From NCBI GenBank assembly GCA_044892505.1, contig CM097882.1, positions 380,432,001 to 380,496,000 of the forward strand: a DNA stretch of 64,000 nucleotides, read 5' to 3'. Origin of the DNA: Schmidtea nova (Eukaryota). Below the pieces are notes generated by a model. The model did no database searches and was not told where the DNA came from. It saw nothing but the letters and a program-made list of their open reading frames with translations. A program made the position numbers and the translations under genes. Shown in pieces: positions 28,349-49,544 of this stretch; within the stretch, counting starts at the first letter, position 1, and every line of letters starts with the position of its first letter.

Positions 28349-28440
28349 TTTCTACAATAATATATACATTCGACCTGTCATTTATTTTTGGTTTTTCTTG
28401 TTTTTATTTTTACATATTTACAATTTTCCGCTTTATTTAT

Positions 28441-28922: not shown

Positions 28923-31900
28923 CTATACCATCATTATCGTCTTTTCCTCGTATCGTTCTTCATCTTCTATTTGTTTCCAGAATTCTTTACCTTTCGTTCT
29001 TCTTTGAAATTCTTTCTGTATCTCTTCTGGTATTTCTATTCTTTGCTTCATAATTTTAATATCTGGCCATTGTATGGCTGTCGCTTTGTTTCTCTTTCTG
29101 TATCTCCAATATATTATCATGCTTGTCGTCATTATCCCATATGCTATTAATATTCCTATACTGATTAATCCTATTACTGTTTTTCCACGGTTTGTTGCTT
29201 TGATTTTATTCTGATTCACTTTTATCTCATTTTGCGTTTGAGCCTCTGGCCTCTTCTCCTTCTGCACTTGACTCTTGACTTGGTTCATTACTTCTTGTGT
29301 AGACCAATGGCGGTTTATTAGTTGTTTGACGTTATTTTCTTTTGTTCGGTTTTCCATGTTTCCTGGTTCGATCTGTTGTTGTAGTTTCTCTGAGATCTGA
29401 TATAATCCGCATTCTGGTTTTTCTGAACCTTTTCTGGTGAAGGTACATATCGCGTATGTCCTATTTACTTCCATTTTCTTTAATTCGACTTTTTCTTTAT
29501 TCTTTATTTCTTTACGGTGGGTTAGGTTGTCTTCTTCCCCTTCTGGGTTATGCTTTGTCCAACATATTCCTTTAACTGTTTGATCGAGTCCTGTTATTGT
29601 CAGAGTTCTTTCTGTCTTTGTTAATTTTTCTTCATCGAATTTCAGTATCTCTCCTTTTTGGAATGTCTTGCAATGCTCTATTCCCTCTTGGATTCCTCTC
29701 TCCCAGATACATATACTTCCTTCTTCATTCATTTGTATTTCTTGTATTTCGATTTCCTTGTTTGTTTGTGATTCGTCGCTTGTCTGAACTTGGTATTCCT
29801 TCCTTGGTTCGTTGTATGTTCCCCAGCATAGTTTGTTGCTGCTTGTTTTTCTTATTGTTATGGCCATTTGTTCTATTATTATTCCTTTGTCAATACGTTT
29901 GGACATTGCTATTATTAACGCTATGCATATGACATCTTGTTGGGGTGATGCTCCTTCTCTCGTGTTATTTATGCTTCTCTCCCCTTCTCCTGGTTTATCC
30001 GTTGTGTTTCTTATCTGAGTTGCTGGTTGATCTATTGTGTTTTTGATTTCTTTCTTTGTTGGTTTTACTCTATACCATTCAAGTCTAGGCGTTTCATATT
30101 TTTGACATACGACTGTCTTAGGTAGCCCCGACTTCTTTTCCTTTTCTATTATGCATATCCGATGCATGATTCCTCTATCCATCCCTTCTATTCGTACTAT
30201 ATCCTGGTCGGATTTTCTGATTATGCATTTTAGTGGGTTATCTTTCCCAATTGGTTCATCCTCTCTATTCCAGCATATTTTCTCGACCTCCTGGACATTT
30301 ACTATTTTTATCCCTGCTTGTAGGTTTGTTGCTTCTTCCCTATTGATTAATGTCAATATTATTGTTAGACCCAACCATTTTGAACTCTGCGGTAGGCTTC
30401 TGGTTCGCCTTTCATATTTTTTCTCTTCTCCTTTAATCTCTTTTATTTCCTTGTCTTTGTTGTTCATTCCTAGTTTTGCGATTTTTGCTTCTTTCTTACT
30501 CCTGGTCGGTTTTGGTTCTTCTCGTACTTCTAGTATTTCGACTCCATGGCTTGTATTATCTATATTTAGCCATTGGGTTGTTGATTTTCTTGGGCTTATC
30601 TTGCGTATCCATATAGTTGATAATGCGATTATTACCGGTATGGTCGCTGTTAATATTCCTAAACCAATTAGTTCTTTAATTTCTTTATTCTCGTCTGTTT
30701 GTATAGATTCGCTTTGGTTGAACATTATTCCGTATTGTCCCTTTAGTTTTCTCATTAATTGTTCTCGTTCCTCTTGCTTTCTTTCGACTTCTTTGATAAC
30801 TTCTTCAGGTGTCCATTTTGCCTGAGGGTCGGTTATTATTTTCTCTGCGTCCATTTGTTCGTTCGTTTGGCTTAGTTCCTTGAATTCAAGTTTCCTTGTT
30901 ATTCCTTTTGATGTTGCGTTTGCTGGTGTATAGTAGGTTTCGCATCTTTCTTGTTGGTTTCCCAGTGCGTCCATTTTTTCTATTGCACATACTTCATACT
31001 CGCTATTAAATTGTAGTTTTTCGATCTTGATTTCTTTATTTGTTTTTCTGCACTCTCTTGATTGTCTTCTTATATGTTTCTGGACTATTATCCAACATAT
31101 TTCTGATGTTTTATTCTCTATTTTCCATAATGTCAGAGTTGCTGATGTCTTTTTCTCGGGTTTTGTCGTAACTTCTTGGCTTATCGGTTGTTTATTGTTT
31201 TTAAAGGTAGTGGTGTACTTCGGTTTTCCTTTGTTTCGTTGTCTTCTTTTATTTTTTCGTGTTAACGTCTTAGTTCTTGTTCCGGTTGAAGTTGTATATA
31301 TTCCGCATTCTAGGTCGTTTATCGTTATCTGATCATTTTTCTTTACCAAACATATTTCGTAGGTTTGTTTACCTTCTAAACCTTTTATTTGAATCGTCGT
31401 TGTTCCTGTGTTTGTTTGACATTGTGGTGTCGTTCTTTTATTTACTTCTTTTTCGTACTTCCTCCAGCATACTCCTTTCACATTTGGTTCTATCTCTTTT
31501 ATTTCTAATGTTATGTTTACTTTCTGCTTGATTTGTTTATTTCTCTTCCTCGTTCTCCTCCTGAACTTTATTACTTCTCCAGGTTGGAATGTTTTACATT
31601 TTGTGGTACCTTTCTTGTTTGTCTCTTTTTCTAGTAGGCATAGTTTGTATGTCTTATCTGCTTTTACTTCGGATACTTTAATTACTTTATTCGTTGTTGG
31701 TTTTCGACTTTTCCTTATTTCATTTACGCCGATTTCCTCGTCATTCCTCGCCCAACATTTTATGTTAGTGTTCTGTGTATCTTCCACTTCTGTTATTGTC
31801 ATAGTTTCAATTTCTATTCCTTCCTCTAATCGTTTTATTATTATTAGTATGAGTGCTAAGCATAATACTTCCATTTGGTAAGACACTCTTTCGGTTTCGT

Positions 31901-32015
31901 TTGTGGCAACTCTTGCTTCGGGCCTCTTTATTGTAATTCGTATAGTTGGTGTTGTTTGCTTATCTATTGCCTGGGGTTTTTGTTTTCTGTTCCCTGTGTC
32001 TCTGTTCTTCCACAT
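28923..32015 (-). CDS. 1030-aa membrane protein with six FN3-like repeats and several hydrophobic segments
   Basis: Repeated about 90-aa unit (I.I...[IV]CW...I.I..L....Y.[IV]C...C..[YF].T); TM-like LIGLGILTATIPVIIAL and VIGLISIGILIAYGIM; continues a unit that starts at the end of pol. Confidence 0.75.
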   Translation of the reverse strand: MWKNRDTGNRKQKPQAIDKQTTPTIRITIKRPEARVATNETERVSYQMEVLCLALILIIIKRLEEGIEIETMTITEVEDTQNTNIKCWARNDEEIGVNEIRKSRKPTTNKVIKVSEVKADKTYKLCLLEKETNKKGTTKCKTFQPGEVIKFRRRTRKRNKQIKQKVNITLEIKEIEPNVKGVCWRKYEKEVNKRTTPQCQTNTGTTTIQIKGLEGKQTYEICLVKKNDQITINDLECGIYTTSTGTRTKTLTRKNKRRQRNKGKPKYTTTFKNNKQPISQEVTTKPEKKTSATLTLWKIENKTSEICWIIVQKHIRRQSRECRKTNKEIKIEKLQFNSEYEVCAIEKMDALGNQQERCETYYTPANATSKGITRKLEFKELSQTNEQMDAEKIITDPQAKWTPEEVIKEVERKQEEREQLMRKLKGQYGIMFNQSESIQTDENKEIKELIGLGILTATIPVIIALSTIWIRKISPRKSTTQWLNIDNTSHGVEILEVREEPKPTRSKKEAKIAKLGMNNKDKEIKEIKGEEKKYERRTRSLPQSSKWLGLTIILTLINREEATNLQAGIKIVNVQEVEKICWNREDEPIGKDNPLKCIIRKSDQDIVRIEGMDRGIMHRICIIEKEKKSGLPKTVVCQKYETPRLEWYRVKPTKKEIKNTIDQPATQIRNTTDKPGEGERSINNTREGASPQQDVICIALIIAMSKRIDKGIIIEQMAITIRKTSSNKLCWGTYNEPRKEYQVQTSDESQTNKEIEIQEIQMNEEGSICIWERGIQEGIEHCKTFQKGEILKFDEEKLTKTERTLTITGLDQTVKGICWTKHNPEGEEDNLTHRKEIKNKEKVELKKMEVNRTYAICTFTRKGSEKPECGLYQISEKLQQQIEPGNMENRTKENNVKQLINRHWSTQEVMNQVKSQVQKEKRPEAQTQNEIKVNQNKIKATNRGKTVIGLISIGILIAYGIMTTSMIIYWRYRKRNKATAIQWPDIKIMKQRIEIPEEIQKEFQRRTKGKEFWKQIEDEERYEEKTIMMV

Positions 32016-35000
32016 TTTCCGAGGATGTAATCTCCTTTGGGTGACTGTTGTATTGTCATGGCTGCTTTAGGTGTTTGGTATTTTGCACATGCGATTGTGT
32101 TGTGTGATCTTGGATGCTTTTGTTTTCTAACGGTGCATATTTTGTACCAGGTATTTAGATCTAGGTCGTTGATCTCTATGATTTCTTGCTCGTGTTCTGA
32201 GATTCTGCAATCCATCGGACTATTTTGTTCCGTGATTTTGTCCTTTTTTGACCAACATACTCGTTCGATTCCTTTTGCGTTTTTTATTTGTATTATTGCC
32301 CTTTCTTCACATGTCATTCCTTGACTTGGGTTAATTAACGTTAAAATCACTGTAAATAATAGTAATTCTGGTTTGAAGAATGGTTTTATGGTTGATTTAT
32401 AACCTGTTCTTTGGGTGTCATTTTTATCTCCTTGGTCGTTTTTTCCTTGTTCTCCATCTTCATCTTTTTGTTTTTCGTCTTCATTTTTCTTTTCTTCCTT
32501 GTCTCGTTTCTTGTCTTTTCCCTCGTGTTCCTCTTTATCTGGTGGCTCGTGATCGTTTGACTTTTCTGAGTTGTTACCGTCGTCACTATCTGTATTGTCA
32601 TCTCCCCCTGGCTCGTCGAAAATGTCGTCCTCGACATTGATTTCTTCTATTAATTTTGCATATGCTAATGTCGTTAGATTACTTGCCTCAAATTCTTGTG
32701 TTTCTACCTGCTCCGGTATTACTTTGTTAGTGGATTTATATTCCCAGATTTCCTTTTTGGCCTTGATCCAATTGTTGATATATGTCTTCATCAATTCTTT
32801 CCATTTGCCTGTGTATTTTTCTTCTTTCGGGCTGGTTGTGATTCTTAGATCCTTTCTTTCCATAAACATTTTCAATATTTCTGGCCATTTATACGTTATT
32901 AAGGCACTTCTTATACACCAGTTTTGGTTATGTTCTGTAAACTTGTTAATCCTGAATGCTGGTTCGTTAGTATTCGGATTTATCCACGTAAGTATTGCTT
33001 CTGTTAGTTCGACGTTATGCATCATTGTTAGTACACTGGGTTTCCTGACCGTATCAGTTAGGTAATCTATTTCTTCCTGATTTGAGATTGTTTTAATGAA
33101 GTTGACCATTTCCCAATTATGTGTTAGTAATGCTACATCCAAAATTGAATTATCTTTATCTGTCTTTCCAGTAAGTCCTGCACCTGCTTTATATAGTTCT
33201 TCTAATACCTTTGTTTTCGTTTTAGCTCTTGCTGCAAATACCATAAGTGTATCTCCTTTCTCGTCTATCATATTCATGTTGCTTCCGCAATTTAACATTA
33301 CTCTTGCAATTTCCATTACTTTTCTATCTTTGCCACTTCGTAGAGCTCTATGTATGGGCATTATTCCGTCCTTTGGTAGTAAAAATGTTACTGGCATCTC
33401 CTTTTTTATAGTCGTTATGTCGTTACCATTGTATGTTCCTTTTGCGTATGCGTGTACTTTTTCAACTAATGCGCCGAGTATTTCCAGTGCATGTTTACTA
33501 TTCTCGAATTCCGGTAACAATTCTTTTGCTTTTTCTTGTATCGCATCTAGTCTAGCTTGGTATGGTGCTTCTGCTTTGAAGAGTGGTGTGAGTTTCTTGT
33601 TACTTTCTCTTTCTTTTTTCTCTAAAACCTGTTTGCATTTTTCAGGATGGTTTAAGATTTTTACTAATTCCTCATATTCGCTTACTATCGTCTGGTATTT
33701 CTCGTTAAAATTGTTTATGTCTTTGTATGTTATTAGTTTATCAAGTGGTTTCGCGCACCATTTCCTAATCTTGTTGAATAAGGCATTCTTTTCTTTATCG
33801 AATTGATGTTCTTCTTCATTCTTTGTGATGTTTATGTTTCCTCTGTCTAATAAGGTTAGTAATGTCTTCTGATCACAAGTAAATTTCAAAAGGTATCTTA
33901 ACAGTGCGTTTTGTCCTTCGCTGTATACTTCGTTTATGTCTAAGACCCATGTATCATCTTCTGGTCGTTTCCATTTGATTAACTTACGGATCGTGTTGCA
34001 TTTACCAATTTTGATTGCCTCTTTGATAATGTCTCCTTTAACTAGTTCGTCTATCTCCCAAGTGGAGTTAGCTATTATGTATTTCAGCATTGGTTGGTGA
34101 GAACTCCATATTACGTGATTTAGCACTGTTTTGTCTTCTCTATCTCGTTCTGTCCAACTGAAATGAGCTTTTATCAATAGATCTATCATTTCTTTATCTG
34201 CTTGGTGGATTGCGGCTGTCATTAATGGAGTTTCTTGTTCCCGATTCCCTACGTCCAAGTTTTGGTTTGTTTCTTTTGCGATTTTTAGGAATTCTTTTGC
34301 TCTTTCAATGTTTTTACACTCTATCGCATTGTGTAAGGCTGGTTGTCCTCCTACATCTTTCAATAAGAGTATTTCTGGGATTTTTATCAATAATTCAGAA
34401 ATAATTGGTTCGGTTGGTAATCCTTGTGCGTAACGGCTAATTATATGTCTAATGTCCCTTGATATGCCTACTTCGTCTTTAACATGCCATCTTCCCATTA
34501 TCTCTCTCGCCTTCAATATGATTTCTTTATTTCTGATTTCCTTTTGCCTTATTTCCGCTTTGTCGTCTTCAGTTGCATTAGCTCTGAGCATATTTATCCT
34601 GGCTGTTTGTGATCTGGTTATTATTCGATTTTCTGGTGTTGTAGTTATCGTTTTAGGCACCTTCTTACATCTGCAGGTGTTTACATATATGGGTCGTATT
34701 AACGGTCGATTTATTAGCTTAACTTTGACATTATTGTCCTTTTTGTATATAATTTCGTAAGGTCCTCTTCCAGGTCTTTGGAGTTTCTTAACAGTTCCTG
34801 GTATTATTTCGGGAGTTTCTATTATCACCCAATCTCCTGGTTTTAGGTTGTTCGCTTTAACATTTTTCTTCTGGTCGTGTAAATCCTTATAACTTTCTTG
34901 ATAAAATTTAATGTTGAGTTCTGCCGTTTTCCATATTTCCTGCATCCTTTCTTTGAATTTGGTTACGTAGTCGTCGTCTTCCATATATTGCGATAATGGT

Positions 35001-38000
35001 GGTTGATACTCTAAATCTATGGGCATGTTGCATTCTCTTCCATACATGAGTTGAAATGGGCTTAGTTTTGTTGCTGCATGTATCGACATTCGGTATGCCA
35101 TTAAACATAATTTTATGTATTCGTCCCAATCAGTTTGATGTCTGCTGACGTAATTTGATAACATTCTGATCAATGTACCATTGAATCGCTCCGTTTGTCC
35201 ATTCGTTTGCGGGTGATATGGTGAAGTTCTCAATTTTGCTATTCTGAAATAGTTTGTCACCTCGTTCAATAACTCACTCATAAAATTAGTTCCTTGGTCT
35301 GTGAGTATTTGTTTTGGAGTTCCGTATCTGCAACATATTTCTTCCACTAGAATTTTTGCTACGGTTTTTGCTTTTTGGTCTTGTATGGCAAATGCTTCCG
35401 GGAATTTCGTCAGATAATCCGTTATTACCAATATATAAATATTTCCGTTTAAACTTTCTGGTAATGGTCCTATTAAGTCCATTGCTATAGTTGTCATTGG
35501 CTCTGCTGGTATCGGCATTGGTTGTAGCGGGTTCTTCCATTTCTTCCCACTATCCTTTCTGGTTGCGCAAGTTAGACAATTTTTAATCCATTCCTTTATA
35601 TCTTCTTCCATTGTTCGCCAATAATATTTTTGTCTCATACGATTTATTGTCTTTTTCTCGGACATATGACCTCCTAATTTCCCATCATGGTATTGGATCA
35701 TTATCTCTTTCCTTCTGTTTTCCGGTAAGCACATCAATCTCTTTTCCCCGTCTTGTATTAACAACCATCCTTTATTTATTATGTAGCGATGTTGATATTT
35801 TCCTATATGTTCCTTTAATTCCTTATTATCCTTGAATACCTCCATATTTCGAGACGTTAGGAACTCTATGATCTGTCCCAATTCTTTGTCTTCCTGTTGA
35901 TCTTTCTTTAACTCACTAAAATCTAAATCCTCCGCTATTAATACACAAATTCGTTGTACATCAGGATCGGTTAGTTCTGGAAATGTCAGTCTTGACATAC
36001 AGTCTGCATTCGCATTCGCTCTTCCTGATTTAAATTTTATGTCTGGTGAGTACTCCTGTAACTGCATTGCCCATCGCATTAATCTACTGGATGTTTCCTT
36101 GTGCTGTCCTAACCATACAAGCGGTTGGTGATCTGTTGTTATGCAGATGATGTGTCCCCATAATAAATTTTTAAAGTGTTTAATAGCTAATATAATCGCT
36201 AGTGCTTCCCGTTCTGTCACTGAGTAATTTTTCTCATGCTTTTTGAATGTTCGACTATAATATCCGATTACCCGTTCTTTTCCTTCGTCGTCGTATTGTC
36301 CTAATACGGCTCCTGCTGCATATCCGCTTGCATCTGTTGCAAGTAGGAATGGCTTCTTGAAGTCTGGGTGTACCAATATGGGTGCGGTTATCAGTTTATC
36401 TCTCAATGTTTCAAAGGCTGTTTGCTGTTCGTCTCCCCATATGAATGATACGTCTTTCTTTACTAGCTCCTGTATAGGCTTTGCGATTCCGGCGTAATCT
36501 TTTATAAACTTTCTATAATATCCACATAGTCCGAGAAATTCTTGTATTTGGGTTATTGTTTTTGGTACTGGGCATTCTTTTACCTTGTCGATATTTCTAG
36601 GATCCGGTTCTTTTCCTTTTGCTGACACTATATGTCCTAAAAATGTAACCTTTTCTTTTGCCCAATCGCATTTTGATGGCTTGAGTTTTAACTTCCATTG
36701 TCTAAGCCTAACGAATACATCTCGAATATCCTGTATGTGTTGTTCGAATGTACTAGAGTAAATCAATAAGTCGTCGATGTAGACCATGCACTGCTTTATT
36801 CCGTGGGTGACGAAATTCATGCATCTCTGGAATGATGCTGGTGCGTTTGTTAGTCCAAATGGCATCTTTCGAAATTGATATAGGTCTCTACCGATGGTAA
36901 AGGCAGTTTTCTCTTTATCTTCTTCTTTCATTTTTATTTGCCAATATCCGCTTTTCAGATCTAACGACGTAAAATATGCTGCTCCTTGTAGTGTTAGTAG
37001 CATTTCGTTGATGTCTGGTAATGGGTAAGTATCTCGTTTGGTCACTGTATTCAACCTTCGATAGTCGATGCAGAATCTCTGTGTTCCGTCTTTCTTCTTT
37101 ACCATTACCACTGGGAATTGCCAGGGTGAACAACTGGGTTCAATTACTTCTGCATCTAACATTTTCTTCACTTCTGCTTCCGCTACTGCTTTCTGTGCTT
37201 CCGCTAATTTGTACGGCCTTAATGCAATTGGTGTTTCATCTGTTAATGGTATTGTATGTAGTGTGACATCACATGTTCCTAGATCCAAATCGGATGCTGC
37301 AAATATGTCCTTATACTCCATCAGCAGTTTTTCTAACTGTTTCTTTTGGTCCTCATTTAATAATTCACTATCAATATTCCAGGTTGGTTCTTTATCTTTC
37401 TCTGCCCCTTCTATTGGCAGTTCGATATCCATCATTGGGGTTAGTTTGCCTAATCTTTCGTTTTCGTAGATTATTTTGTCCTCTTCGTCGAAGTTTACTA
37501 TGTTTATTGGGATTTCTCCATTGTCATTTATGTTGACTAGTCCTCTTGCCATTGGCAACGCTTTTCTTTTCTCGAATCTTTTACTTGGTTCGAAAATCAT
37601 ATCGCCTTGGATTGTCGGATCTATTTTTACGTAACATATTTTCTCCTTTCTTGCGGGTATTATCATTTGCTTTGAACTTGTCACTTTAGCTTCTATTGCG
37701 CATATTTGTCCTGTGCGATCCTTTAGTCTCATTGTTCCGAGATCTATTACAATCTCTTTAAATAATGCTGGCATCAAATCTGTTCCGATAATGCAAGGTA
37801 CGCTTAATGCTGGTATAACTGCTACGTACGTATCGATTTCCGTGTTTAAGTGGCGTATTTTTACCCACCATCTTCCTGCTACTTCTACAACTTCTTTGCT
37901 ACATGCAATTACATGGACGTTTGTCCTTTCTATTTCCCGTCTTTGCTCTTGTGGTATCCATTTGATGTCGATGGCGGAAATGTTTGCTCCAGTGTCGATC

Positions 38001-41000
38001 ATTGCTTCGATTTCTCTTCCGTTAATCTCTATTGTCGTGGTTAATACTGGACCTGTGTTTGATGACATCACTGCGATCGTGTGTGTATCTCCTTGTGGAT
38101 CCACACTTCTACATCTTCTCATTTTATAATCTTCTGGTATCATGGGGTATACATTTGTCATTGGCATCATTTGCATCGTGCTATTTTTTCCTCCTTGTAG
38201 TGGTTCTTGATACATTGTTGGTGGGGGTGCGTAACATTTCCATGCGTCGGCTGGATTTTTTTCGATGTATTGTGGTGCTTGGTTCTTATACACTTGTCCT
38301 CCCTTATAGTCGTCATCGTCATCGTCGTCGTCACTCGAATCATTTTGGGTTTTATATCCTTTCATCCTCTCCCATAAACCTTTTCTTTCTCTCTTGAGCT
38401 GTTGTCTTGCTTGTTCGTCATTCATTATCTTTTTAAATTTTCGTCCCACTTCTTCATCTGTTCCCTTCATTTTTGCTAATATCTTTAGGAGTCTTTTTAT
38501 TCGGTGGATATCTTTTGAGTGACCGTGTAACACCATTGTTTTCGCAAGGAATGGTAAAAACCCTACTACCATTTTCCAATTCACTTTCTTTTCTCTCTTG
38601 TAAATATCGAAACACGCTAACATTTGCGTTATTATCACTCTGACGATTTGTATTATTAATATAACCCCCAGTATTCCAGCCATCATTTGTCCGAATATCA
38701 GGAATCTTCCCCACATTGCTTTCATCATATTTTCTGTGGCTTTCTTGAAATGTGCTGGTGACAACAACAGTTCATAATTCGGTCCTTCTCGATAATCCGT
38801 TCCTCCCGTTATCGTTACGATATTTGACAGTAATGCTTCTCTTCTTGCCGGGAATAATATATTCTGCCTTGCTGCTTCTAAATCCTTTGGACTATATATT
38901 CCGTTGTTTGAGACATCTACGTCGCTGAATTGCCTATCCTTTGACAACTGCATTAGCTCGAATTCTCTTGGTGCTATCACTTCGGATCTTCCTGGGAACA
39001 TAACCCATTTACCATCTGGTTTTTGATAAAGCGGTCCGTACGCATTACTACAGTTGAATGGATTTGGTTCAAACCCTGGTGGGTTGATGATTCTCGTCAC
39101 CGGTTGAACGTATCGTACTTTTCCTTTGTAATCGATTTCTAACTCATTTGTACAGGTTCCAGGTTTCAACTGTGTTGTTGCTGCTAGCGACGCGTGTGTC
39201 TTTTCGCAAATGTATACGTACATTGCTTCTCCAACCACTCTTCCGAAATGTCCTTCTCTCAGTGGTAATAATGGCATCGCGCTATCTGGATTCGTAATCG
39301 CTACGGCCAACTTTGTCTTTAATATTTCTCGATTCAGTATACAATCATTATTTATCAGATCGTAATACACTTTTTGTAATGAGGCTTGTCCTCTATGGAA
39401 TAGGAAATCCATTTTATTATTCACATATAGGTGTAGTTTGATATCTATTGTGTCGATTTTGGGTTTCGCATTTGGCACTTCTTGTTTTGACACATATATT
39501 CCTGGGTAATTCGTTTCGTATACCGTTGTACTACACTTAAGGGTTGCTTTCCCTTTTATGAACCTCATTCCCACATCCTGATTTGTGGTTATCAACACTG
39601 TTGGTGTGGCTCTCATCTCTATTCGTTTTTCTCTATGATCTGGTTTCAGTTGTCTTTTATTCTCTAAAGCTTCCTTGAGATGCTTTGCTCTAGCTTTGTC
39701 GTCCTCGTCTTCTTCCTGGAACGTTTTTCCTTGAATTTCGTCGAACTGTGCTCCTTGTAGTAGTTGTAATTGACATTCGTTCACCTTTGGTTTGTATACT
39801 AATGTTGACATTCCCGTTTGACACATGCTCCTGTCGATTTTACACATGGATAACGTTTTCATTTCTCCCGTTGTTGGTTCGAAGAATGCTTCATAGCTTT
39901 TCAATTCGACTATGTACGTATCCATCACTACTAAGTTGGTTGCGGGTACTCCGAATATCGGGTAGGTTTCTCCTTGACAATATCCTTCTCCTCCCGTAAT
40001 CCGTCCTGCTACATAGTAGGTTTGTTGCAGCATCATCCCTGGCTTTCCTCTTATCTTGATTTTATCCCTTGTTGTTACTTCTCCGTGTTTAAACAGTGCT
40101 TCGCAGTCCTCTCCTTGTAACACGATTGGTTCTCTTTCCGTTCCTGGCATGACAATTGCTGAATAATGTCCTCTCCCGCAGTAGAATGCGAATCTCGTTT
40201 TCTGCACCTTACATTCATTCACCATTGTCTTTATGAGTTCTGCTTCTTGATACACGTGGTACCATTGTTCTTTTTTAATCTTTTGCAACTCTACTGGAGT
40301 TGCATCTTTGCATTGCTCCGTACCCCTCAATGAATACTTTTCTCCTAACTTCATTTGGTCGCAATCAAACACTTCGAATGCCGTTGCGCTATCGGTGCTA
40401 ATCATCCATATCAACATCATCATTATTATAGAACTCAGATTCATTGATGACTTTGCGTTTCCTGTTCCTGTTTGTTCCTTTTCTAACTCTTCCAATATTT
40501 TTTCGAATTTCTTTTTCATATTCTTGGCTTGCGTTTTCTTCTGGTTAGTTTTTATAAATGTTTCCCATCCTCCTTTGTTAATGACGTAGGGTTCTATTTC
40601 TCTAGCTATAATCTTTGCGGTATTTTTTATATGTCTTTCTAATGCGGTGGGTTTTGGTCTACCTCTACTCAGTGTCAACAGATTGTAGATCGTGTATGCA
40701 ATGGCTATTACATATTTGTTATCAGTTTCCGCTCCTTCTGTCAATTTCTTTATTAACGTAGTGGTTCCTTGCCAGTCTAAATGATTTGACTTCGTCTTTT
40801 CTTTTATGAATTCTGGTAGGATGGGTGCAATTGCGCTGTGTAATGACTTCGCCTTTTCGCTTATCTCAGTTATACGCCAGTATTTTCTCAATTCCGGATC
40901 AATTATTGCCAATATTTCCATTATTGTTTTCGATATCCATTCCTCCCCTTGACATATTGGTGTTGTTTCTTTTTCTTTTATCTCCGCGATCTTAATTAAT

Positions 41001-41428
41001 TTCTTTAAACATAATTCCCATTGATCTTGTCTCTTTTCATCCTTATTTCTGATGACTACATTCGCTGGATCTGTCTTGGGTCTACCTCGAGGTCGCCTAT
41101 CCATTCCTGTACCTGTTTCCACAAACCTTGTTGCCCGTCCTGTTTCTTCCGTGACATCTCTTGGTTCGTTAGCTCTTTCTTCTAACCATCTTTCCATTTC
41201 CTGTGTTAATTGTGCATTTTCGACATTCGCTCCTCTCGTTTCGTCTTCTGTTAGATCGTTTACTTCTTCTATTATTATTTCTTCTTCGACTTCTGCTTCT
41301 CCGGTGTTGGTTACTTGTATTGTCGTAGGTAATTCTTGTATCCTTTCGAAAATATTATCGTCTTTTTCCTTTGTTAATTCGGTTAATTCTTCTATCATAT
41401 CGTCACTGTCTGTCAATATTTCGTCCAC
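31964..41428 (-). CDS. pol: 3154-aa polyprotein: Bcl-2-like, signal peptide, envelope glycoprotein, TM, PR, RT, RNase H, IN, ankyrin repeats, acidic linker, FN3-like unit
   Basis: MIDTGA (about 37990), YIDD (about 36775), ATDASG (about 36330), HH-CC plus MDLIGP/TDQG/TERFN, GRGPY (about 34760); uninterrupted frame. Confidence 0.95.
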   Translation of the reverse strand: MDEILTDSDDMIEELTELTKEKDDNIFERIQELPTTIQVTNTGEAEVEEEIIIEEVNDLTEDETRGANVENAQLTQEMERWLEERANEPRDVTEETGRATRFVETGTGMDRRPRGRPKTDPANVVIRNKDEKRQDQWELCLKKLIKIAEIKEKETTPICQGEEWISKTIMEILAIIDPELRKYWRITEISEKAKSLHSAIAPILPEFIKEKTKSNHLDWQGTTTLIKKLTEGAETDNKYVIAIAYTIYNLLTLSRGRPKPTALERHIKNTAKIIAREIEPYVINKGGWETFIKTNQKKTQAKNMKKKFEKILEELEKEQTGTGNAKSSMNLSSIIMMMLIWMISTDSATAFEVFDCDQMKLGEKYSLRGTEQCKDATPVELQKIKKEQWYHVYQEAELIKTMVNECKVQKTRFAFYCGRGHYSAIVMPGTEREPIVLQGEDCEALFKHGEVTTRDKIKIRGKPGMMLQQTYYVAGRITGGEGYCQGETYPIFGVPATNLVVMDTYIVELKSYEAFFEPTTGEMKTLSMCKIDRSMCQTGMSTLVYKPKVNECQLQLLQGAQFDEIQGKTFQEEDEDDKARAKHLKEALENKRQLKPDHREKRIEMRATPTVLITTNQDVGMRFIKGKATLKCSTTVYETNYPGIYVSKQEVPNAKPKIDTIDIKLHLYVNNKMDFLFHRGQASLQKVYYDLINNDCILNREILKTKLAVAITNPDSAMPLLPLREGHFGRVVGEAMYVYICEKTHASLAATTQLKPGTCTNELEIDYKGKVRYVQPVTRIINPPGFEPNPFNCSNAYGPLYQKPDGKWVMFPGRSEVIAPREFELMQLSKDRQFSDVDVSNNGIYSPKDLEAARQNILFPARREALLSNIVTITGGTDYREGPNYELLLSPAHFKKATENMMKAMWGRFLIFGQMMAGILGVILIIQIVRVIITQMLACFDIYKREKKVNWKMVVGFLPFLAKTMVLHGHSKDIHRIKRLLKILAKMKGTDEEVGRKFKKIMNDEQARQQLKRERKGLWERMKGYKTQNDSSDDDDDDDDYKGGQVYKNQAPQYIEKNPADAWKCYAPPPTMYQEPLQGGKNSTMQMMPMTNVYPMIPEDYKMRRCRSVDPQGDTHTIAVMSSNTGPVLTTTIEINGREIEAMIDTGANISAIDIKWIPQEQRREIERTNVHVIACSKEVVEVAGRWWVKIRHLNTEIDTYVAVIPALSVPCIIGTDLMPALFKEIVIDLGTMRLKDRTGQICAIEAKVTSSKQMIIPARKEKICYVKIDPTIQGDMIFEPSKRFEKRKALPMARGLVNINDNGEIPINIVNFDEEDKIIYENERLGKLTPMMDIELPIEGAEKDKEPTWNIDSELLNEDQKKQLEKLLMEYKDIFAASDLDLGTCDVTLHTIPLTDETPIALRPYKLAEAQKAVAEAEVKKMLDAEVIEPSCSPWQFPVVMVKKKDGTQRFCIDYRRLNTVTKRDTYPLPDINEMLLTLQGAAYFTSLDLKSGYWQIKMKEEDKEKTAFTIGRDLYQFRKMPFGLTNAPASFQRCMNFVTHGIKQCMVYIDDLLIYSSTFEQHIQDIRDVFVRLRQWKLKLKPSKCDWAKEKVTFLGHIVSAKGKEPDPRNIDKVKECPVPKTITQIQEFLGLCGYYRKFIKDYAGIAKPIQELVKKDVSFIWGDEQQTAFETLRDKLITAPILVHPDFKKPFLLATDASGYAAGAVLGQYDDEGKERVIGYYSRTFKKHEKNYSVTEREALAIILAIKHFKNLLWGHIICITTDHQPLVWLGQHKETSSRLMRWAMQLQEYSPDIKFKSGRANANADCMSRLTFPELTDPDVQRICVLIAEDLDFSELKKDQQEDKELGQIIEFLTSRNMEVFKDNKELKEHIGKYQHRYIINKGWLLIQDGEKRLMCLPENRRKEIMIQYHDGKLGGHMSEKKTINRMRQKYYWRTMEEDIKEWIKNCLTCATRKDSGKKWKNPLQPMPIPAEPMTTIAMDLIGPLPESLNGNIYILVITDYLTKFPEAFAIQDQKAKTVAKILVEEICCRYGTPKQILTDQGTNFMSELLNEVTNYFRIAKLRTSPYHPQTNGQTERFNGTLIRMLSNYVSRHQTDWDEYIKLCLMAYRMSIHAATKLSPFQLMYGRECNMPIDLEYQPPLSQYMEDDDYVTKFKERMQEIWKTAELNIKFYQESYKDLHDQKKNVKANNLKPGDWVIIETPEIIPGTVKKLQRPGRGPYEIIYKKDNNVKVKLINRPLIRPIYVNTCRCKKVPKTITTTPENRIITRSQTARINMLRANATEDDKAEIRQKEIRNKEIILKAREIMGRWHVKDEVGISRDIRHIISRYAQGLPTEPIISELLIKIPEILLLKDVGGQPALHNAIECKNIERAKEFLKIAKETNQNLDVGNREQETPLMTAAIHQADKEMIDLLIKAHFSWTERDREDKTVLNHVIWSSHQPMLKYIIANSTWEIDELVKGDIIKEAIKIGKCNTIRKLIKWKRPEDDTWVLDINEVYSEGQNALLRYLLKFTCDQKTLLTLLDRGNINITKNEEEHQFDKEKNALFNKIRKWCAKPLDKLITYKDINNFNEKYQTIVSEYEELVKILNHPEKCKQVLEKKERESNKKLTPLFKAEAPYQARLDAIQEKAKELLPEFENSKHALEILGALVEKVHAYAKGTYNGNDITTIKKEMPVTFLLPKDGIMPIHRALRSGKDRKVMEIARVMLNCGSNMNMIDEKGDTLMVFAARAKTKTKVLEELYKAGAGLTGKTDKDNSILDVALLTHNWEMVNFIKTISNQEEIDYLTDTVRKPSVLTMMHNVELTEAILTWINPNTNEPAFRINKFTEHNQNWCIRSALITYKWPEILKMFMERKDLRITTSPKEEKYTGKWKELMKTYINNWIKAKKEIWEYKSTNKVIPEQVETQEFEASNLTTLAYAKLIEEINVEDDIFDEPGGDDNTDSDDGNNSEKSNDHEPPDKEEHEGKDKKRDKEEKKNEDEKQKDEDGEQGKNDQGDKNDTQRTGYKSTIKPFFKPELLLFTVILTLINPSQGMTCEERAIIQIKNAKGIERVCWSKKDKITEQNSPMDCRISEHEQEIIEINDLDLNTWYKICTVRKQKHPRSHNTIACAKYQTPKAAMTIQQSPKGDYILGKCGRTETQGTENKNPRQ
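33110..34370 (-). other. Two ankyrin-repeat clusters C-terminal to integrase (domain of pol)
   Basis: GQPALHNAI, QETPLMTAA, DKTVLNHVI; GIMPIHRAL, GDTLMVFAA, DNSILDVAL at ankyrin-like spacing. Confidence 0.85.
38620..40445 (-). other. env: Chuvirus-like (class III, gB-related) envelope glycoprotein (domain of pol)
   Basis: Signal SSIIMMMLIWMISTDSATA; FDC; ECKVQKTRFAFYCGRGH; CTNELEI..KG..YVQPVTRII; NGIYSPKDL..ARQNILFP.RR; TM WGRFLIFGQMMAGILGVILII. Confidence 0.82.
40550..40950 (-). other. Bcl-2-like domain (domain of pol)
   Basis: BH2-like YVINKGGWETFI; BH1-position LDWQGTTTLI; helical character. Confidence 0.6.
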
Positions 41429-41452
41429 GTCGTATGGTTGTGGTGGAGTCCT

Positions 41453-44400
41453 TTATTTGGTTTCTCTGGGTGTTGTCTCAGATCGTCTCGAACTTGTCCC
41501 TGGCGTTGGTACTGATTTCATCGGGCTCGGCGTACTTATACTTCCGTGTGGTTTATGGTTTTCTTCTTTACGTTTTAATGGTTGACCCGCTATTGCTTCT
41601 ACTGTCAAGGTATTCATGAGGTCTAGTTGTGCTGGCGTTATTCCAATTTCTAAACTGTTATCTAATGATCGTCCTTGGTGTTGTAGATGGAATGGTGGTT
41701 CGTATCTCAATTTCTTTTTGATATCTCGAATTTTTTCTGCTATTCCTACCCACAATTCCTCCTTATCCTTGTTTGGGTATATTATTCTTAAATGTACTTT
41801 CTGTGGAATTTCCTGCGAGAATTCTTGGTTTCTCCATTTCCTAATTACGTGGTCTAGTTGTTCCGGGCACCACTCGTTAACTCTTTTATATTCCGCGATT
41901 GCTTTTGCTACTTTACGTAAACATGTTATATCTTCTCCATTAACCACGAAAAAATCTGCGAGACCTTTTATTAATTTTCTCTTACCGTGCGCATTAGTTT
42001 TCAATATTTCGACAAATTCTTCCGTTTTTTGCTTTTCCCTTTCTAACCACATGGCCGCTGTTTCTGGTCCATCTAGGTCTATTGGCGTAGCTTTCCTTGT
42101 TACCATGCAAACTCTTCCTATCTCTGGTTCGCAGTCATCTTCTATTCCTCTTTTATATTCTTCTTCATATTCCCCTTCTTTTGGTTCCCAACATTTTCCT
42201 TTCTCGTTCCATTGTTTTTCTACGGGTGTTCGTATTCGTCTGTTGAGATTGAGTTCTTCTAATACATTTTCCCACTCTGGCCAAATTCGCCAATTTCGAT
42301 AAATTTCTACTATTTGTTGTAATTTGCGCACGACTTCTTTCCGTCGTTCCCGTTCTCTTTTCTCATCTTTAGCAGTTTCCCTTGGTGTATCGTCCATTCT
42401 GCTAACGTGGATTGTTTGGTGATTATCCCATATACCGATTTTATATAATCGTCTCTCATCGTGATCCCATAATACATGTTCGTTGTATTGTATGATTATG
42501 TCGTCTTCCCATTCGTCTTCTGGTTCTCTTTGCACTAGTGTCTCGTTAATGACATTTATTAATTCTTTAATGGTGCAATCCGCTACCACTTCAATTTCTT
42601 TGGTGTCCTCATTAGGTAATTCTACTGAAATTTTTAGATCTGTTATTTTCCCTTGTCTAAACATTGTTTTTCCCATTTTTGCGATTAATTTGTCGTGTGA
42701 GATCTGTGACCATCTCGTGTGGCTTGTGTCACGTATGCACTCAATGCATCGTTTCAATTTCTCGTATTCGCTTCTCATTAACTCTTTTCTATGTTTTTTG
42801 ACTTGTGGTATGATTTGTTCTATCAGGGAATTTAGATTCTTTCGTAAGACTCGTTCTTTCTCGTATTCTAACCGAGGTTTTATTCTCCTTTCGAAGCACG
42901 TGTTTGCCTCCCTTGCAACTTCTTGTAGGTTCTCTTCTTCCTTTTCATCGCATATTGATAATAGGGTTATTTCTCCTGGCCATATACCTGTTTCTACTAA
43001 GTGCGTTCTTTTCTTTACGAGTCTATTCTGCGAATAGATGAATTTGTTTTTGTATGAGCTCCCTAGTCTATCCTCTACCCATCTGTAGATATCGTCTGTA
43101 AATGGAGTTTTAATCCAGATTCTTGGTGTAGATGTGTTTATTATTATTGAGATGGTGTAATTGAGGAGTGGTTCCTCTATTAATTTCCCTACGTATCGAT
43201 TTAACATGTCTACTTCCCGGTCTTGTAACCATTCTTTGTAGTTCATTTGTAATAATGCTTTCATGAATTTCCGATATTGTTTCTTGTCCATGAACTCTTC
43301 GTTATATATTACTTCTAGCGAGTTATCTAGTAATTTCTGGATTTCGTCTACTTTCATCTGTGTAGGTTCTGAGGTCTTTATTACTTCTCTCTCTTTATTT
43401 TCGTCTTCGGATTCATTTAATATGTCTCCTGCTAGGCTACTGATATCACTATCTTCTTCTTCATCGGAGAACTCTCTGGTGGTATTTCTTAGCATATTAA
43501 TATGTGCTGTTTGGTTCGTTTCCCCTTGTGTATTCTCCGTTGGTTTTGTTTTGTTTTTGCTGATTTCTGGTGTTAGTTCATTTTTGTCCTCCATTAATTC
43601 GACTTTTCCCATTTTCTTTCCCAACTCGTCTATTTCTTTTAAACGTCTTCTTATCATTTTTCCTTCAAATATTCGCCTGATTCGGGTTTCGTGACGTATT
43701 GGTGGTGGAATTTCTTCTGGTTCTATTTCTTTAATAATCATCACGTTTCTTTTTGTTTCTACTACTCCCAAGTTTTCCCATATGTCCGTTAATTCCAACT
43801 TTACTTTTGGCGCACCTTCTATTTGTAAGAACGCTTCTCTGGGCAGTTTCGTTACTCCCGGAACCATCTGGTTTACTTTGTTGAATAATATTCCCACTTC
43901 TTCTTTTACGTTATACTGGAATCTAAACACGGATTTGCTGGGCATGATTACCATCATTCCTCTTTTCCAACTCTCTTTCCTCTCTTCCTGGTTTATCTCA
44001 GTTTCCACTTCCTTTTTTATTTCTTTTTCTACTTCCTCATCTTTTTGTGTTATTTCTTTTCGACTTTCGTTGTCGGTTGGATTCGGGTTTATCGAATTTA
44101 TTTCCGGTGTGGTTTCTTTCTCGTAGTTATCTGTTTGCTTTGTTGCTCTTAGCATGTTAATTCTTAGAGGTTGTCGTTCTCTTTCTTGTTGTTTTTGTTC
44201 ATCCTCTCTTTGTATTCTTGCCCATTCCTGAGCGTGTCGTGCCTGACTTTCTCGATTTAATCGTTCGTTTTCGCTTTCTATCTTTCTCATCATGCTAATT
44301 TGTTGTGGATTGATTTGCGGATTTCCTCTCGCCGTGTTGTTTATCAGTTCCGTCAGCCTTTGAACTTCTTGCATCAAATGAATTTCTTTGGTGGTAGTTT

Positions 44401-45952
44401 TGTTCTGATTATTGTTATTGTTGTTTTGTTGGTTTCCATAATCTGGTCGGTTTACGGTATTTACTTGATTTCCGTAATTTGGTCGGTTCCCATTGCTCTG
44501 CCAGTTTCCTCGCTGATTACTTTTTTGTCCGCAATTTCTTGAATAGTGACCAGGTCGTCCGCAATTAAAACAGATTATTGTAGAACATCTGCTTTCCGAG
44601 TGTCCTTTAACTCCACATTTTCCGCAATTCGAATTTTGATAGCATTCTTGCTGCCAGTGTCCCAACTTCCCGCATGTTTTACATTGTTTTGTTTGTCTTT
44701 GAGGGTTGTAATTGTTTTGGTTTTCAAAGTTCTGCACTTTATTTCCTTCATTTCTTCGTTGAGGGGGTGGTCGGTTTAATTGTTGCGAATTTGGAATGTG
44801 ATTGTTGAGATTTACCTCTGGTTCGGTTTGCGCTGTGTCCATGGCTAAGTAAATTCTGCCCTCACTTCCTATCATGTGTAATTCGAATCGGTTAGCTGTT
44901 TCTAACGCTTGATCAATGGTCTTGCATCCTTGGCATCCAACTTGCGCTCTTATGTCAGGTCTTCTTAATCCTCCTATGAAGATGGCTGCCATTAACTCCT
45001 CGTTTATTGGACCTCCATCCTTGAATACTGATTTTGCTAATTTTTTCAGTTCGCTCGCGTATACCGCGTTAGATTCATTCATCTTTTGTTTCCTCATTGA
45101 AAATTCTATGAATGCCTCGCTTAGCACTTTATTTATTCCAAATGTTTGTTGGAAAAAATCCTTTATCGCTGTCCAGCTTGTAGGTGGATTGGTACCATTT
45201 TTCGCTTCCAAATATAGGTCCAATGCACTATCTTTCAAATATAACTGAATTCTGCTTACTGTTGTTTCCGCTTTCCACTTGCATACTTCTACGAATATGC
45301 CAAATTCTTTTAAAAAGGTTTCTAATTTACTCGCATCTCCGTTAAACGGTTCTCCTGAAAATTTATCCTTTATTTCTTCTCTTGGTTCACCCATTTCAAT
45401 TCCGCTGTCTTGAGTTATTTTACTTTCGTTTCCCCTTGTTTCTAGTTTGTTGTTATGTTCGTCTTCTGTTTCACTCGAGCTTGAATCGCTTTCTGTTTCT
45501 CTTATTACTTCGTTATCTGATATTATACTTTCGTTATCACTCTCGTTGATTTCTACCTCTGGTTCTACCTCGTTTTCTACTTCTCCGATATTATCGTTGT
45601 TAGTTTCGTCGGTTTCTCCTTCTTGTTCTATCTCGTGTTCTATTTCTTCGATATTCTCGTTGTTAGTTTCGTCGCTTTCTATTTCACTTGCTTGGTTCTC
45701 CTTGGATTCGGCTTGGTTTTCTTTGTTACTTGAGCTGTTGCTTACTATTGACAATTTATCGTTTTCGATAATCGATTTATCTCTTATTATTTTCCTCGCT
45801 TTACTCCCTTGTGGGTTCTTGTTGTTATCCTTGCCGGCTTTCTGCTTTTTTGTTGATTTTGTTGTAGTACTAGTTTTGTCTTTTTTGTTAATATTGCTGC
45901 CGACTTTCTTTTCCGTTGGCTTTATTACGACACTCTTTGCTCCTTTTCTCAA
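41453..45952 (-). CDS. gag: 1499-aa extended Gag: charged N-terminus, capsid, three CCHC knuckles, about 1000-aa extension with ubiquitin-like repeats
   Basis: FNGDASKLETFL...W...LYLKDSALDLY; CKTCGKLGHWQQEC, CGKCGVKGHSESRC, CFNCGRPGHYSRNC (about 44530-44685); first ATG at 45394. Confidence 0.9.
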   Translation of the reverse strand: MRKGAKSVVIKPTEKKVGSNINKKDKTSTTTKSTKKQKAGKDNNKNPQGSKARKIIRDKSIIENDKLSIVSNSSSNKENQAESKENQASEIESDETNNENIEEIEHEIEQEGETDETNNDNIGEVENEVEPEVEINESDNESIISDNEVIRETESDSSSSETEDEHNNKLETRGNESKITQDSGIEMGEPREEIKDKFSGEPFNGDASKLETFLKEFGIFVEVCKWKAETTVSRIQLYLKDSALDLYLEAKNGTNPPTSWTAIKDFFQQTFGINKVLSEAFIEFSMRKQKMNESNAVYASELKKLAKSVFKDGGPINEELMAAIFIGGLRRPDIRAQVGCQGCKTIDQALETANRFELHMIGSEGRIYLAMDTAQTEPEVNLNNHIPNSQQLNRPPPQRRNEGNKVQNFENQNNYNPQRQTKQCKTCGKLGHWQQECYQNSNCGKCGVKGHSESRCSTIICFNCGRPGHYSRNCGQKSNQRGNWQSNGNRPNYGNQVNTVNRPDYGNQQNNNNNNQNKTTTKEIHLMQEVQRLTELINNTARGNPQINPQQISMMRKIESENERLNRESQARHAQEWARIQREDEQKQQERERQPLRINMLRATKQTDNYEKETTPEINSINPNPTDNESRKEITQKDEEVEKEIKKEVETEINQEERKESWKRGMMVIMPSKSVFRFQYNVKEEVGILFNKVNQMVPGVTKLPREAFLQIEGAPKVKLELTDIWENLGVVETKRNVMIIKEIEPEEIPPPIRHETRIRRIFEGKMIRRRLKEIDELGKKMGKVELMEDKNELTPEISKNKTKPTENTQGETNQTAHINMLRNTTREFSDEEEDSDISSLAGDILNESEDENKEREVIKTSEPTQMKVDEIQKLLDNSLEVIYNEEFMDKKQYRKFMKALLQMNYKEWLQDREVDMLNRYVGKLIEEPLLNYTISIIINTSTPRIWIKTPFTDDIYRWVEDRLGSSYKNKFIYSQNRLVKKRTHLVETGIWPGEITLLSICDEKEEENLQEVAREANTCFERRIKPRLEYEKERVLRKNLNSLIEQIIPQVKKHRKELMRSEYEKLKRCIECIRDTSHTRWSQISHDKLIAKMGKTMFRQGKITDLKISVELPNEDTKEIEVVADCTIKELINVINETLVQREPEDEWEDDIIIQYNEHVLWDHDERRLYKIGIWDNHQTIHVSRMDDTPRETAKDEKRERERRKEVVRKLQQIVEIYRNWRIWPEWENVLEELNLNRRIRTPVEKQWNEKGKCWEPKEGEYEEEYKRGIEDDCEPEIGRVCMVTRKATPIDLDGPETAAMWLEREKQKTEEFVEILKTNAHGKRKLIKGLADFFVVNGEDITCLRKVAKAIAEYKRVNEWCPEQLDHVIRKWRNQEFSQEIPQKVHLRIIYPNKDKEELWVGIAEKIRDIKKKLRYEPPFHLQHQGRSLDNSLEIGITPAQLDLMNTLTVEAIAGQPLKRKEENHKPHGSISTPSPMKSVPTPGTSSRRSETTPRETK

Positions 45953-46564
45953 CGGGATTACTTTTGTATACTCAATTTTCCTGTCCTATCTCTTATCGTT
46001 TTCTGATTCTTCTTGCTTGATTGATTGATTTGATTGATTTGTATGTCTAAAATACAAAGGTCCTCAACGATACATTATTGTTATCGTCGCGCTTTTATTC
46101 CCTTTCTTTCGGGATTACTTATTACCGGGTTTTCATTATTTCCCAATTCCCAGATTCCCCTTTATTTTTAGTCTATTTAAATTATCTATAGACTGGTCAC
46201 AATTATCTATTTATGTCGTAATAATTATCTATGTTTTATCAAATCAATTACTTTTCCCACAGTTTCCCAATTGTTTTGGTCGCTCGAGCGCTCTAATTCC
46301 CTGAGTCTTTCTGACTCGTTTATCATTATTTTATCATCTCTATTCATTGTTCCCTGCTAGCAATCGTTTTACTCATTCTGCCGGTTGCTCCGGTCAGCTC
46401 AAATCTCCACTATTCTCCTTGCATGCTTTACTTAAGGTTGCATAATCAGCTTTACTCGCATTCTCTTAACTACTGGTGCGCACTACTCTAAATCTCGTCG
46501 ACGATTACACTATGGGTCTATATTCCCCCTGTTACTATTTATCCGGATATCTCTATAATTCACT

Positions 46565-46821: not shown

Positions 46822-46861
46822 TAACGCCTAGCTAGGTCATTCAATAAGGCTCGTTGGCCTC

Positions 46862-47978: not shown

Positions 47979-48283
47979 TTACTGAATAAATAATTGTTTT
48001 TAACTTTGTTATTTTTATCATTTCTAAAGTAGTAATATGTTTCGCTTTGTATCTTTTGATATTTATCAATCCTCCCCGTGTTTCCGACAATTGTCGTCCC
48101 GACAAATTATCTATGCATGCATTTAATTTTTAACTTCACTTTTGTTCACTGCCATGTTGTTATTTTAATTTTTATACAATAATTTAATTATAACCTTTCT
48201 GTTTTTTATTAAATTAATTGACACGAGCATTTTAAACTTCTCTGCAGATTTTACATTTACATTTTTCCGATAAAACGAAGTTG

Positions 48284-48301
48284 ATCCCGACTGAGCCCCC
48301 A
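48284..48301 (-). promoter_or_regulatory. Primer binding site, tRNA-Pro-like
   Basis: Minus-strand TGGGGGCTCAGTCGGGAT, 6 nt after the LTR CA; 15/18 match to the MLV-type Pro PBS TGGGGGCTCGTCCGGGAT. Confidence 0.8.
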
Positions 48302-48763
48302 AATTTATGCTGGGTTCATGGAGGGGTTAGATGAAAAATGCTCTAACAATGACTAGGGATCCCTCATCCATGATCATGCATAAAATTGCAATTTTACACT
48401 CAAGCGCCCTTGATTAGTCCCCTATATAATCAAGTTGGTGATGCGCAGGGTGGTTAAACAATGATGGGCAGGTGAGCACTATCGCTAGTACTACTCCCCA
48501 TTTATGTTTACGGGTCCATTGCTGCCGTTAGAAGGACTTATGCTTTAATTATTTGCTTAGGTATTCCGCAAACATCTTTTTAGAAAACTTTATGTTTAAC
48601 ATTGCGTATTCTGCGAGAAGTGTTCAAATCGAAATGCTCGCCTAATTATTTGTTATCTTGTGATATGATTTTATACTTTTATACTCCATTTATCTAATTA
48701 TTTGTCAAGTTACAGAATCCATTTAAAAGAACAATAACAATTAAATTATCCCGAAAATTTTAT

Positions 48764-49360: not shown

Positions 49361-49544
49361 TCTATAATTTATTTAGGATATTTACTTTATGATTAAATTA
49401 TGTGAAAAATGAAAATCTGATTATAGGGTTATTAGGTTACGAATACGAACTATTAAAAACACAAAACAAAACTCAAAACAACAAAATAAAAACACCACTG
49501 AACATTAATATTTGAACACAATTTAAACATTTGTCAATCAGTTT

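Follow-up and report, generated by a model that had tools for sequence, protein, structure and literature searches.

What is a Bcl-2-like domain doing between the Gag and Env regions of a retroelement polyprotein, and what would become of it if the Env signal sequence that follows were cleaved? The question is raised by a 64,000-nucleotide stretch of the Schmidtea nova genome (NCBI GenBank assembly GCA_044892505.1, contig CM097882.1, forward-strand positions 380,432,001 to 380,496,000; here called the window, whose own numbering is used throughout), in which a minus-strand long terminal repeat (LTR) retroelement of 27.8 kb hosts such a domain. We propose, with moderate confidence, that in this Burro-type element cleavage of the Env signal would leave the piece bearing the Bcl-2-like domain tethered to the endoplasmic reticulum (ER), where it would probably dampen host death or stress signalling.

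Burro elements are giant gypsy-like LTR retroelements of dugesiid planarians, and the presence and position of their BCL2-like domain are already known: the motif is published as lying just before an in-frame, mononegavirus-like env that is placed between gag and pol (PMC6431247). That account gives no structure or function for the motif, which was previously a domain annotation only, and makes no mention of a signal peptide or anchor. The window element shares with the published ones a length of more than 25 kb, a single polyprotein (about 5,000 aa as published), a CCHC Gag, and ankyrin and MATH/TRAF cargo. Its sequence organization is that of a giant Burro-type gypsy LTR retroelement with a class III-type Env, an assignment made on layout. 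It differs in that the TRAF open reading frame (ORF) is separate and downstream, and in that the polyprotein, at about 5,650 aa, exceeds the published length and has additional membrane segments. Cargo varies among the published elements, and BIR was not seen in the window ORFs scanned.

A Bcl-2-like domain inside a Gag-to-Pol polyprotein

The domain sits within the polyprotein, in the order Gag, Bcl-2-like domain, hydrophobic segment, Env and Pol, a setting that had been overlooked when the domain was first proposed from sequence alone. Pfam matches in the window run from CCHC knuckles in a 1,510-aa frame to the Env glycoprotein, protease, reverse transcriptase, RNase H, integrase and ankyrins in a 3,162-aa frame, which also holds the BH2 motif EPYVINKGGWETF; a separate TRAF-like ORF (RING, TRAF zinc fingers and MATH) lies downstream. 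Two lesions interrupt the window copy, an in-frame stop (41453-41455) and a change of frame near 31964-32066. At least 150 copies, 95-100% identical, are present in the genome; counting by eye, 139 of 150 have no stop within the 221 aa tested, and 33 of the 150 scored have stop-free frames of at least 5,640 aa, the polyprotein from Gag to Pol being about 5,650 aa. Because such long stop-free frames occur in many copies, Gag, the Bcl-2-like domain, Env and Pol normally form a single polyprotein. Programmed read-through at the post-gag stop was considered and is unlikely, since many copies run through in one frame.

The window domain on its own reaches Bcl-xL only at E 1.7, through BH2. Seven further subfamilies, found by genome searches with PF00452, the Env family and single domains, bridge it to Bcl-xL and Bax; the subfamilies group as three lineages (A/D, B/C/E and F/G/H). 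PF00452 is matched at E 0.1 or better by 21 of 27 aligned family members, and a family profile finds Bcl-xL at E 3e-7, with all 60 matches listed belonging to the Bcl-2 family. Since subfamilies B and C had been found with the Bcl-2 model, the profile test was repeated without B, C and E to avoid selection; Bax is then the top match at E 3e-4, and 57 of the 60 matches listed are Bcl-2 family members. A profile built without the window's own lineage gives the window 26.6 bits, whereas the highest of 1000 shuffles reaches 11.5. The profile evidence shows that the domain is homologous to the Bcl-2 family.

An alignment-based AlphaFold (AF2) model, made from a 31-row alignment that included no host Bcl-2, has a pLDDT of 70 and predicts an eight-helix Bcl-2 fold around a hydrophobic alpha5. 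When this model was compared with 48,161 chains by VIA-align, the top 34 rows were Bcl-2-fold chains (Z 14.1-6.6; the poxviral chains among them taken as Bcl-2 folds), and the first unrelated row had Z 5.6. The best structural match is trBcl-2L2 (Z 14.1, rmsd 2.9, 137 residues aligned; rmsd 2.7-2.9 across the top 4), and model residues 25-165 cover whole Bcl-2 chains. Foldseek against the PDB gives only Bcl-2 family members among the matches listed (42 of 42; best E 4.5e-3). The sequence-only reading had placed a Bcl-2-like domain at 40385..40950 and named structure prediction and Foldseek among its checks, with a fold other than a Bcl-2 helical bundle as its refutation; a Bcl-2 bundle is what was predicted, and profiles, model and structural matches support it over 40538-40960, nearly the same interval.

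Searches of protein databases gave no match, those of phage and viral-contig collections found no relatives, and the ESM Atlas gave no match at 0.9 or above; a representative protein library yielded one match, P0003, with 37% identity over BH1-BH2 and without context. In a tree of BH1-BH2 the Burro rows fall on one side and 10 host-like rows on the other (support 94/95, not starred), and among those 10 rows no particular host donor was identified. The genome itself holds host-like Bcl-2 family loci (L031-L039, L042, L050, L052, L056, L059 and L158), labelled by eye and including BOK-like and Bax/Bak-like loci and an expanded divergent group, some of them with stops.

With cellular Bcl-2 proteins (Bcl-xL, Bfl-1, BOK, Bax; PF00452) the element domain shares the predicted eight-helix fold and hydrophobic alpha5, the BH2 GGW and a hydrophobic segment after BH2. 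It differs from them in having no NWGR, no BH3 Asp (in the window family), an extra N-terminal helix and a place in a polyprotein; a longer linker leads to its tail, predicted to act as a co-translational ER signal and to be cleaved. A divergent fold and degenerate BH motifs in a selfish genome are also features of the Bcl-2 homologues of DNA viruses (BHRF1, KsBcl-2, A179L, E1B-19K, M11L, N1L, A52); those are stand-alone genes of large DNA viruses, whereas here the domain belongs to the polyprotein of a reverse-transcribing element.

Degenerate BH motifs and purifying selection

BH2 is readily recognized: its GGW is invariant in all 31 alignment rows. The window reads PYVINKGGW, the first Trp of W-x-x-x-x-GGW being Tyr in the window family, and the pattern [WY][VIL]xxxGGW arises in 1 of 2000 shuffles of the window ORF. 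BH1 had been read as a non-canonical DWQG (40766-40777), and this proved misplaced: DWQG lies at the start of model helix alpha4, and NWGR aligns about 15 residues later, at E-T-D-N-K-Y. The BH1 equivalent is thus AETDNKY at the alpha4/alpha5 turn, where NWGR of Bcl-xL aligns with T-D-N-K; the sister families read GINRDR, GIDKDK, GIDENR and GIDKEV, and subfamily C retains more of BH1. All 31 rows have D, N or E in place of the BH1 Gly, and K or R is kept at the BH1 Arg position in subfamilies A-E. The BH3 pattern L-x-x-x-G-D is absent from alpha2 of the window (EKAKSLHSAI), where the alignment is gappy, and L-x-x-I-x-D-E in alpha2 is retained solely by subfamily F. Judged by its motifs the domain would not pass as a canonical pro-survival Bcl-2 at BH1 or BH3, yet it appears to keep the fold.

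An additional helix, alpha0, precedes the Bcl-2 fold in all subfamilies. Its reading as a tethered BH3 was not supported: the resemblance does not exceed chance, since the similarity to host BH3 falls outside the top 3 windows of the ORF and is not outstanding in the sister families. Upstream of alpha0, at 41078-41098 (minus strand), subfamilies A, D and B have an AT-hook-like RGRP motif.

Loss of the BH1 and BH3 consensus residues raises the possibility that the domain is a Bcl-2-fold signalling scaffold rather than a BH3 trap, acting with the TRAF and ankyrin proteins of the element on innate-immune signalling. The poxviral proteins A52, B14 and N1L, which inhibit NF-kB and TLR signalling, would be its models, and A52 and N1L are among the structural matches. 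The cargo itself and the rapid divergence of the domain within the B/C/E lineage (core identity 37-47%, against 71-89% for Env) are also as expected of a scaffold. However, cellular and herpesviral Bcl-2s match the model at Z 11-14 and A52 and B14 at only Z 5-7, and subfamilies A-E retain both the BH2 GGW and K/R at the BH1 Arg position. We regard a scaffold as unlikely; it would in any case be compatible with the anchoring part of our proposal. A complex predicted between the domain and a host Bax/Bak-like BH3 segment scored 0.01 in a run made without the family alignment, and speaks neither for nor against binding.

Purifying selection on the domain is strong: in comparisons of subfamily A with subfamily D, dN/dS is 0.06-0.08 in the core and 0.18-0.22 in the upstream linker (four non-independent pairs). 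These values, the complete predicted fold and the invariant GGW largely refute the idea that the domain is a degenerate remnant or a helical spacer arisen by chance, for which the missing Pfam match of the window copy and the low identity between lineages might have spoken, and which we consider scarcely credible. Between the three lineages Env is 35-43% identical and the Bcl-2-like domain 16-25%; the faster divergence of the domain fits a host-facing surface, and also fits relaxed constraint.

The junction with Env

In the window the hydrophobic segment begins 37-40 residues after GGWETF and is followed by SATA|FEVFDC and the Env ectodomain. The arrangement agrees with the sequence-only reading, which had put a BH2-like GGWETF about 35 residues before the signal sequence. 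To define the junction we used 114 rows from 138 loci, the remainder being host-like, broken or without the motifs; 106 of the rows are stop-free, and together they represent seven subfamilies in three deep lineages, some copies having been fetched twice. The distance from BH2 to the Env start xxx[YF]DC is 52-67 residues in these rows. Small residues occupy positions -3 and -1 of the cleavage site in 114 of 114 rows, the site having been positioned from the Env [YF]DC motif and so independently of the residues scored; subfamily H agrees. The junction is constant in three lineages whose other cargo differs.

Several features identify the segment as a likely internal, cleavable ER signal that came with Env; that it is the Env signal peptide had already been supposed. 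Its N-side is basic (+1 to +4) in all subfamilies, its core is short, and the -3 and -1 residues are small, the pattern of a cleavable signal. In 4 of 4 proteins the core aligns to positions 4/5-20 of PF24664, the N-terminal signal slot of the glycoprotein profile, although a hydrophobic stretch of any origin might match that slot, and elements of this kind may themselves have contributed to the profile. Of 5 precursors examined, 4 (2 of them truncated by the locus boundary) have the segment as their first 15-residue stretch with a KD hydropathy of at least 1.9; in the remaining one the sole earlier stretch at that level is Bcl-2 helix alpha5. The polyprotein upstream of the segment is predicted to be cytosolic, and the C-terminal helix of Env would return Pol to the cytosol.

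Could the segment instead be the tail anchor of a captured host Bcl-2, later reused as an Env signal, with a product still able to reach mitochondria? Bcl-2 tails sit at the same position after BH2, two host-like loci (L056 and L059) have a hydrophobic tail there, and the basic N-side would suit such an origin. Mitochondrial targeting of Bcl-xL, however, requires a transmembrane helix flanked at both ends by two or more basic residues (PMC2172731), and this pattern is not found here: all 9 representatives carry a C-side (lumenal) charge of -1 to +1, and the window flank DSATA has no basic residue. The alignment with the N-terminal signal of the viral glycoprotein profile, and the established need for ER insertion if Env is to be translocated, also argue against a captured anchor, which we hold to be very improbable.

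On the reading we favour, the signal would insert at the ER co-translationally with the N-terminus of the polyprotein in the cytosol, and signal peptidase would cut after A-T-A, freeing the Env N-terminus at FEVFDC. The element's protease would release the Bcl-2-bearing piece from Gag somewhere upstream. That piece would remain on the ER for at least a while, the anchor being possibly transient, and would bind host partners through a non-canonical surface, given the loss of the BH1 Gly and (in the window family) of the BH3 Asp, as in divergent poxviral Bcl-2-fold proteins. A role against death or stress is suggested by the fold, the selection, the TRAF and ankyrin cargo, and the report that the IAP domain of Burro1 protects stem cells from apoptosis (PMC13465017, in a passage citing Lee 2026). 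More tentatively, the Env signal peptide might serve as the membrane tail of the Bcl-2 domain, each Env delivering, to the membrane at which Env folds, one ER-bound death or stress inhibitor that could set stem-cell survival beside the Burro1 IAP; we consider this possible but doubtful.

Several points weigh against an ER-tethered Bcl-2. In the window copy the stop separates Gag from the Bcl-2-like frame. The window domain alone matched no Bcl-2 Pfam model, and its single-sequence AlphaFold prediction (pLDDT 42, no meaningful Foldseek match) was uninformative; the pLDDT of the alignment-based model is itself just 70, its Foldseek matches are all weaker than E 0.001, and no row of the family alignment keeps NWGR. 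The 114 junction rows reduce to the seven subfamilies noted above. Stable anchoring is doubtful, given how short and weak the hydrophobic core is (KD 2.25 over 12 residues, summed Hessa +3.1); the distance of the core from BH2 ranges from 35 to 50 residues, and two host-like loci have 25. The polyprotein has another signal-like segment after the ankyrin region, with four further hydrophobic segments downstream. Any cytosolic domain placed before a signal gains a tail, so the pairing of Bcl-2 and signal may be incidental. Finally, with our own pattern no protease-site-like motif was found within about 350 residues upstream of the domain.

A rival view is that the domain is an incidental neighbour of the segment. 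The segment would then serve Env only, perhaps also anchoring the Gag precursor for assembly, and the Bcl-2 domain would work either in soluble form, once signal peptide peptidase or the viral protease has released it, or while still joined to Gag. The segment does occupy the signal slot of the donor glycoprotein, polar residues flank its short core, the polyprotein has internal signals at several points, and the linker length varies; moreover, the HERV-K Env signal peptide is set free into the cytosol (PMC2649029). On the other side, the junction is kept in three lineages in which the Bcl-2 cores are only 16-25% identical and the other cargo differs. The last 21 signal residues are also 95% identical between A and D, with one position differing at a saturated dS of at least 1, albeit in a small sample. 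An incidental pairing seems to us rather improbable, though of appreciable weight.

What had been proposed at the outset was that signal-peptidase cleavage would leave a tail-anchored Bcl-2-like protein. The end-state topology, with a cytosolic N-terminus and a terminal helix, fits this description. The route does not, being predicted as co-translational and to the ER rather than to mitochondria, with no basic residue on the lumenal flank. The protein also carries, at its N-terminus, about 1,600 residues of Gag and accessory domains, with no clear protease site adjoining the Bcl-2-like domain, and the short core means that the anchor may be clipped by signal peptide peptidase, for which there is precedent.

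Known systems offer partial parallels. In the bioactive Env signal peptides FIV Fsp, HERV-K SP and MMTV Rem-SP, a cytosolic functional domain forms an N-terminal extension of the glycoprotein signal and is freed by signal peptidase. The polyprotein signal anchors of flavivirus capsid and HCV core likewise have a cytosolic domain ahead of a signal at which signal peptidase frees it. The element differs from both in that what precedes its signal is a Bcl-2 fold of host origin, itself joined to Gag on the upstream side, whose cleavage and activity are predicted. Long Env signal peptides can serve as accessory proteins (PMC10128041, PMC2649029), as that of FIV does (PMC10128041). The idea of a signal as anchor was not found in the literature searched, though the primary Burro papers (Grohme 2018, Lee 2026) may cover it.

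New here are the predicted complete fold for a lineage invisible to Pfam, the purifying selection, the reassigned BH1, the conservation of the junction and an ER-tether model that is open to test. Conservation of the junction across lineages with less than 25% domain identity gives a concrete topology to test. Should the domain be an active ER-tethered death regulator, a retroelement would supply a Bcl-2 as large DNA viruses do, coupled one-to-one with Env synthesis, and a working Bcl-2 would be encoded by a reverse-transcribing element and kept in hundreds of copies. This bears on why giant elements thrive in planarian stem cells, where Burro IAP cargo reportedly aids regeneration.

Other features of the window

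Positions of the element's features are collected in Table 1.

Table 1. Features of the Burro-type element, in window coordinates.
Feature	Position	Strand	Basis or remark
5' LTR, about 3.1 kb, TG...CA	48306..51434	-	99.3% identity to 3' LTR over 3,129 nt; ends read
3' LTR	23614..26728	-	4-bp word TATG at both element ends, read as target-site duplication
Primer-binding-site-like 18-mer just inside 5' LTR	48283..48300	-	sequence reading; putatively tRNA-Pro-like
Gag part of polyprotein: 3 CCHC knuckles and, near 42640 and 41800, two stretches weakly resembling ubiquitin; in-frame stop at its end	41453..45985	-	Pfam and frame reading
3,162-aa open frame: acidic linker, Bcl-2-like domain, signal, Env, protease, reverse transcriptase, RNase H, integrase, ankyrins, second internal signal	31964..41452	-	
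Extra helix alpha0 before Bcl-2 fold	40967..41029	-	kept in all subfamilies
Predicted Bcl-2-fold domain, alpha1-alpha8	40538..40960	-	model residues 25-165; profile matches; dN/dS
BH1-equivalent turn TEGAETDNKYVI	40706..40741	-	Trp and Gly of NWGR absent
BH2 motif EPYVINKGGWETF	40556..40594	-	GGW invariant, 31/31 rows
Basic/helical linker, BH2 to signal	40445..40555	-	
Predicted internal Env signal sequence; core IIMMMLIWMI, A-T-A at -3/-1	40379..40444	-	
Env, Monjiviricetes-type fusion glycoprotein	38597..40378	-	PF24664, E 1.5e-70
C-terminal transmembrane helix of Env	38609-38707	-	
Aspartyl protease	37766..38038	-	PF00077
Reverse transcriptase and RNase H	36050..37102	-	PF00078, PF17917, PF17919
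Integrase	35210..35725	-	PF17921, PF00665
Ankyrin repeats	34067..34336	-	PF12796
Second signal-like hydrophobic segment, after ankyrin region	32315..32371	-	
Downstream frame: four more hydrophobic segments, repeated Cys/Trp ectodomain-like units	28923..32066	-	no Pfam match
Separate TRAF-like ORF (RING, TRAF zinc fingers, MATH)	26993..28351	-	Pfam

Within the polyprotein (31964-45985, minus strand) a motif I-N-M-L-R or [IV]-C-x-x recurs at domain borders, after the nucleocapsid, after the protease, between RNase H and integrase, and after the integrase, and these are candidate protease sites. The C-terminal region at 28923-32371 (minus strand) has five hydrophobic segments between its repeated Cys/Trp ectodomain-like units, which are likely secreted or surface accessory proteins. 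The TRAF-like ORF is an intronless full gene inside the element, with a coiled coil in addition to its RING, zinc fingers and MATH domain. Published Burro elements have a SUMO-like domain before BCL2 (PMC6431247); here PF11976 is weakly matched in sister subfamilies B and F (E 0.017 and 0.006), and the window gives no significant match. Two ubiquitin/SUMO-like units precede the Bcl-2 domain in subfamilies F, G and H (L131-L142).

Elsewhere in the genome a high-copy repeat (L143-L148), close to several other ORFs, gives at least 150 BIR matches, most of them in ORFs of 399 aa; the 2 neighbourhoods read contain no Bcl-2-like domain. In the window itself, the long 5' leader of the element contains two tandem arrays (46533-47068) with units of 32 nt and 29 nt. 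Outside the element are two degraded gypsy pol fragments (3139-5180 and 17811-19851) that are 65% alike, and at 20191-21133 a MITE-like inverted repeat of about 340 nt is 92% complementary.

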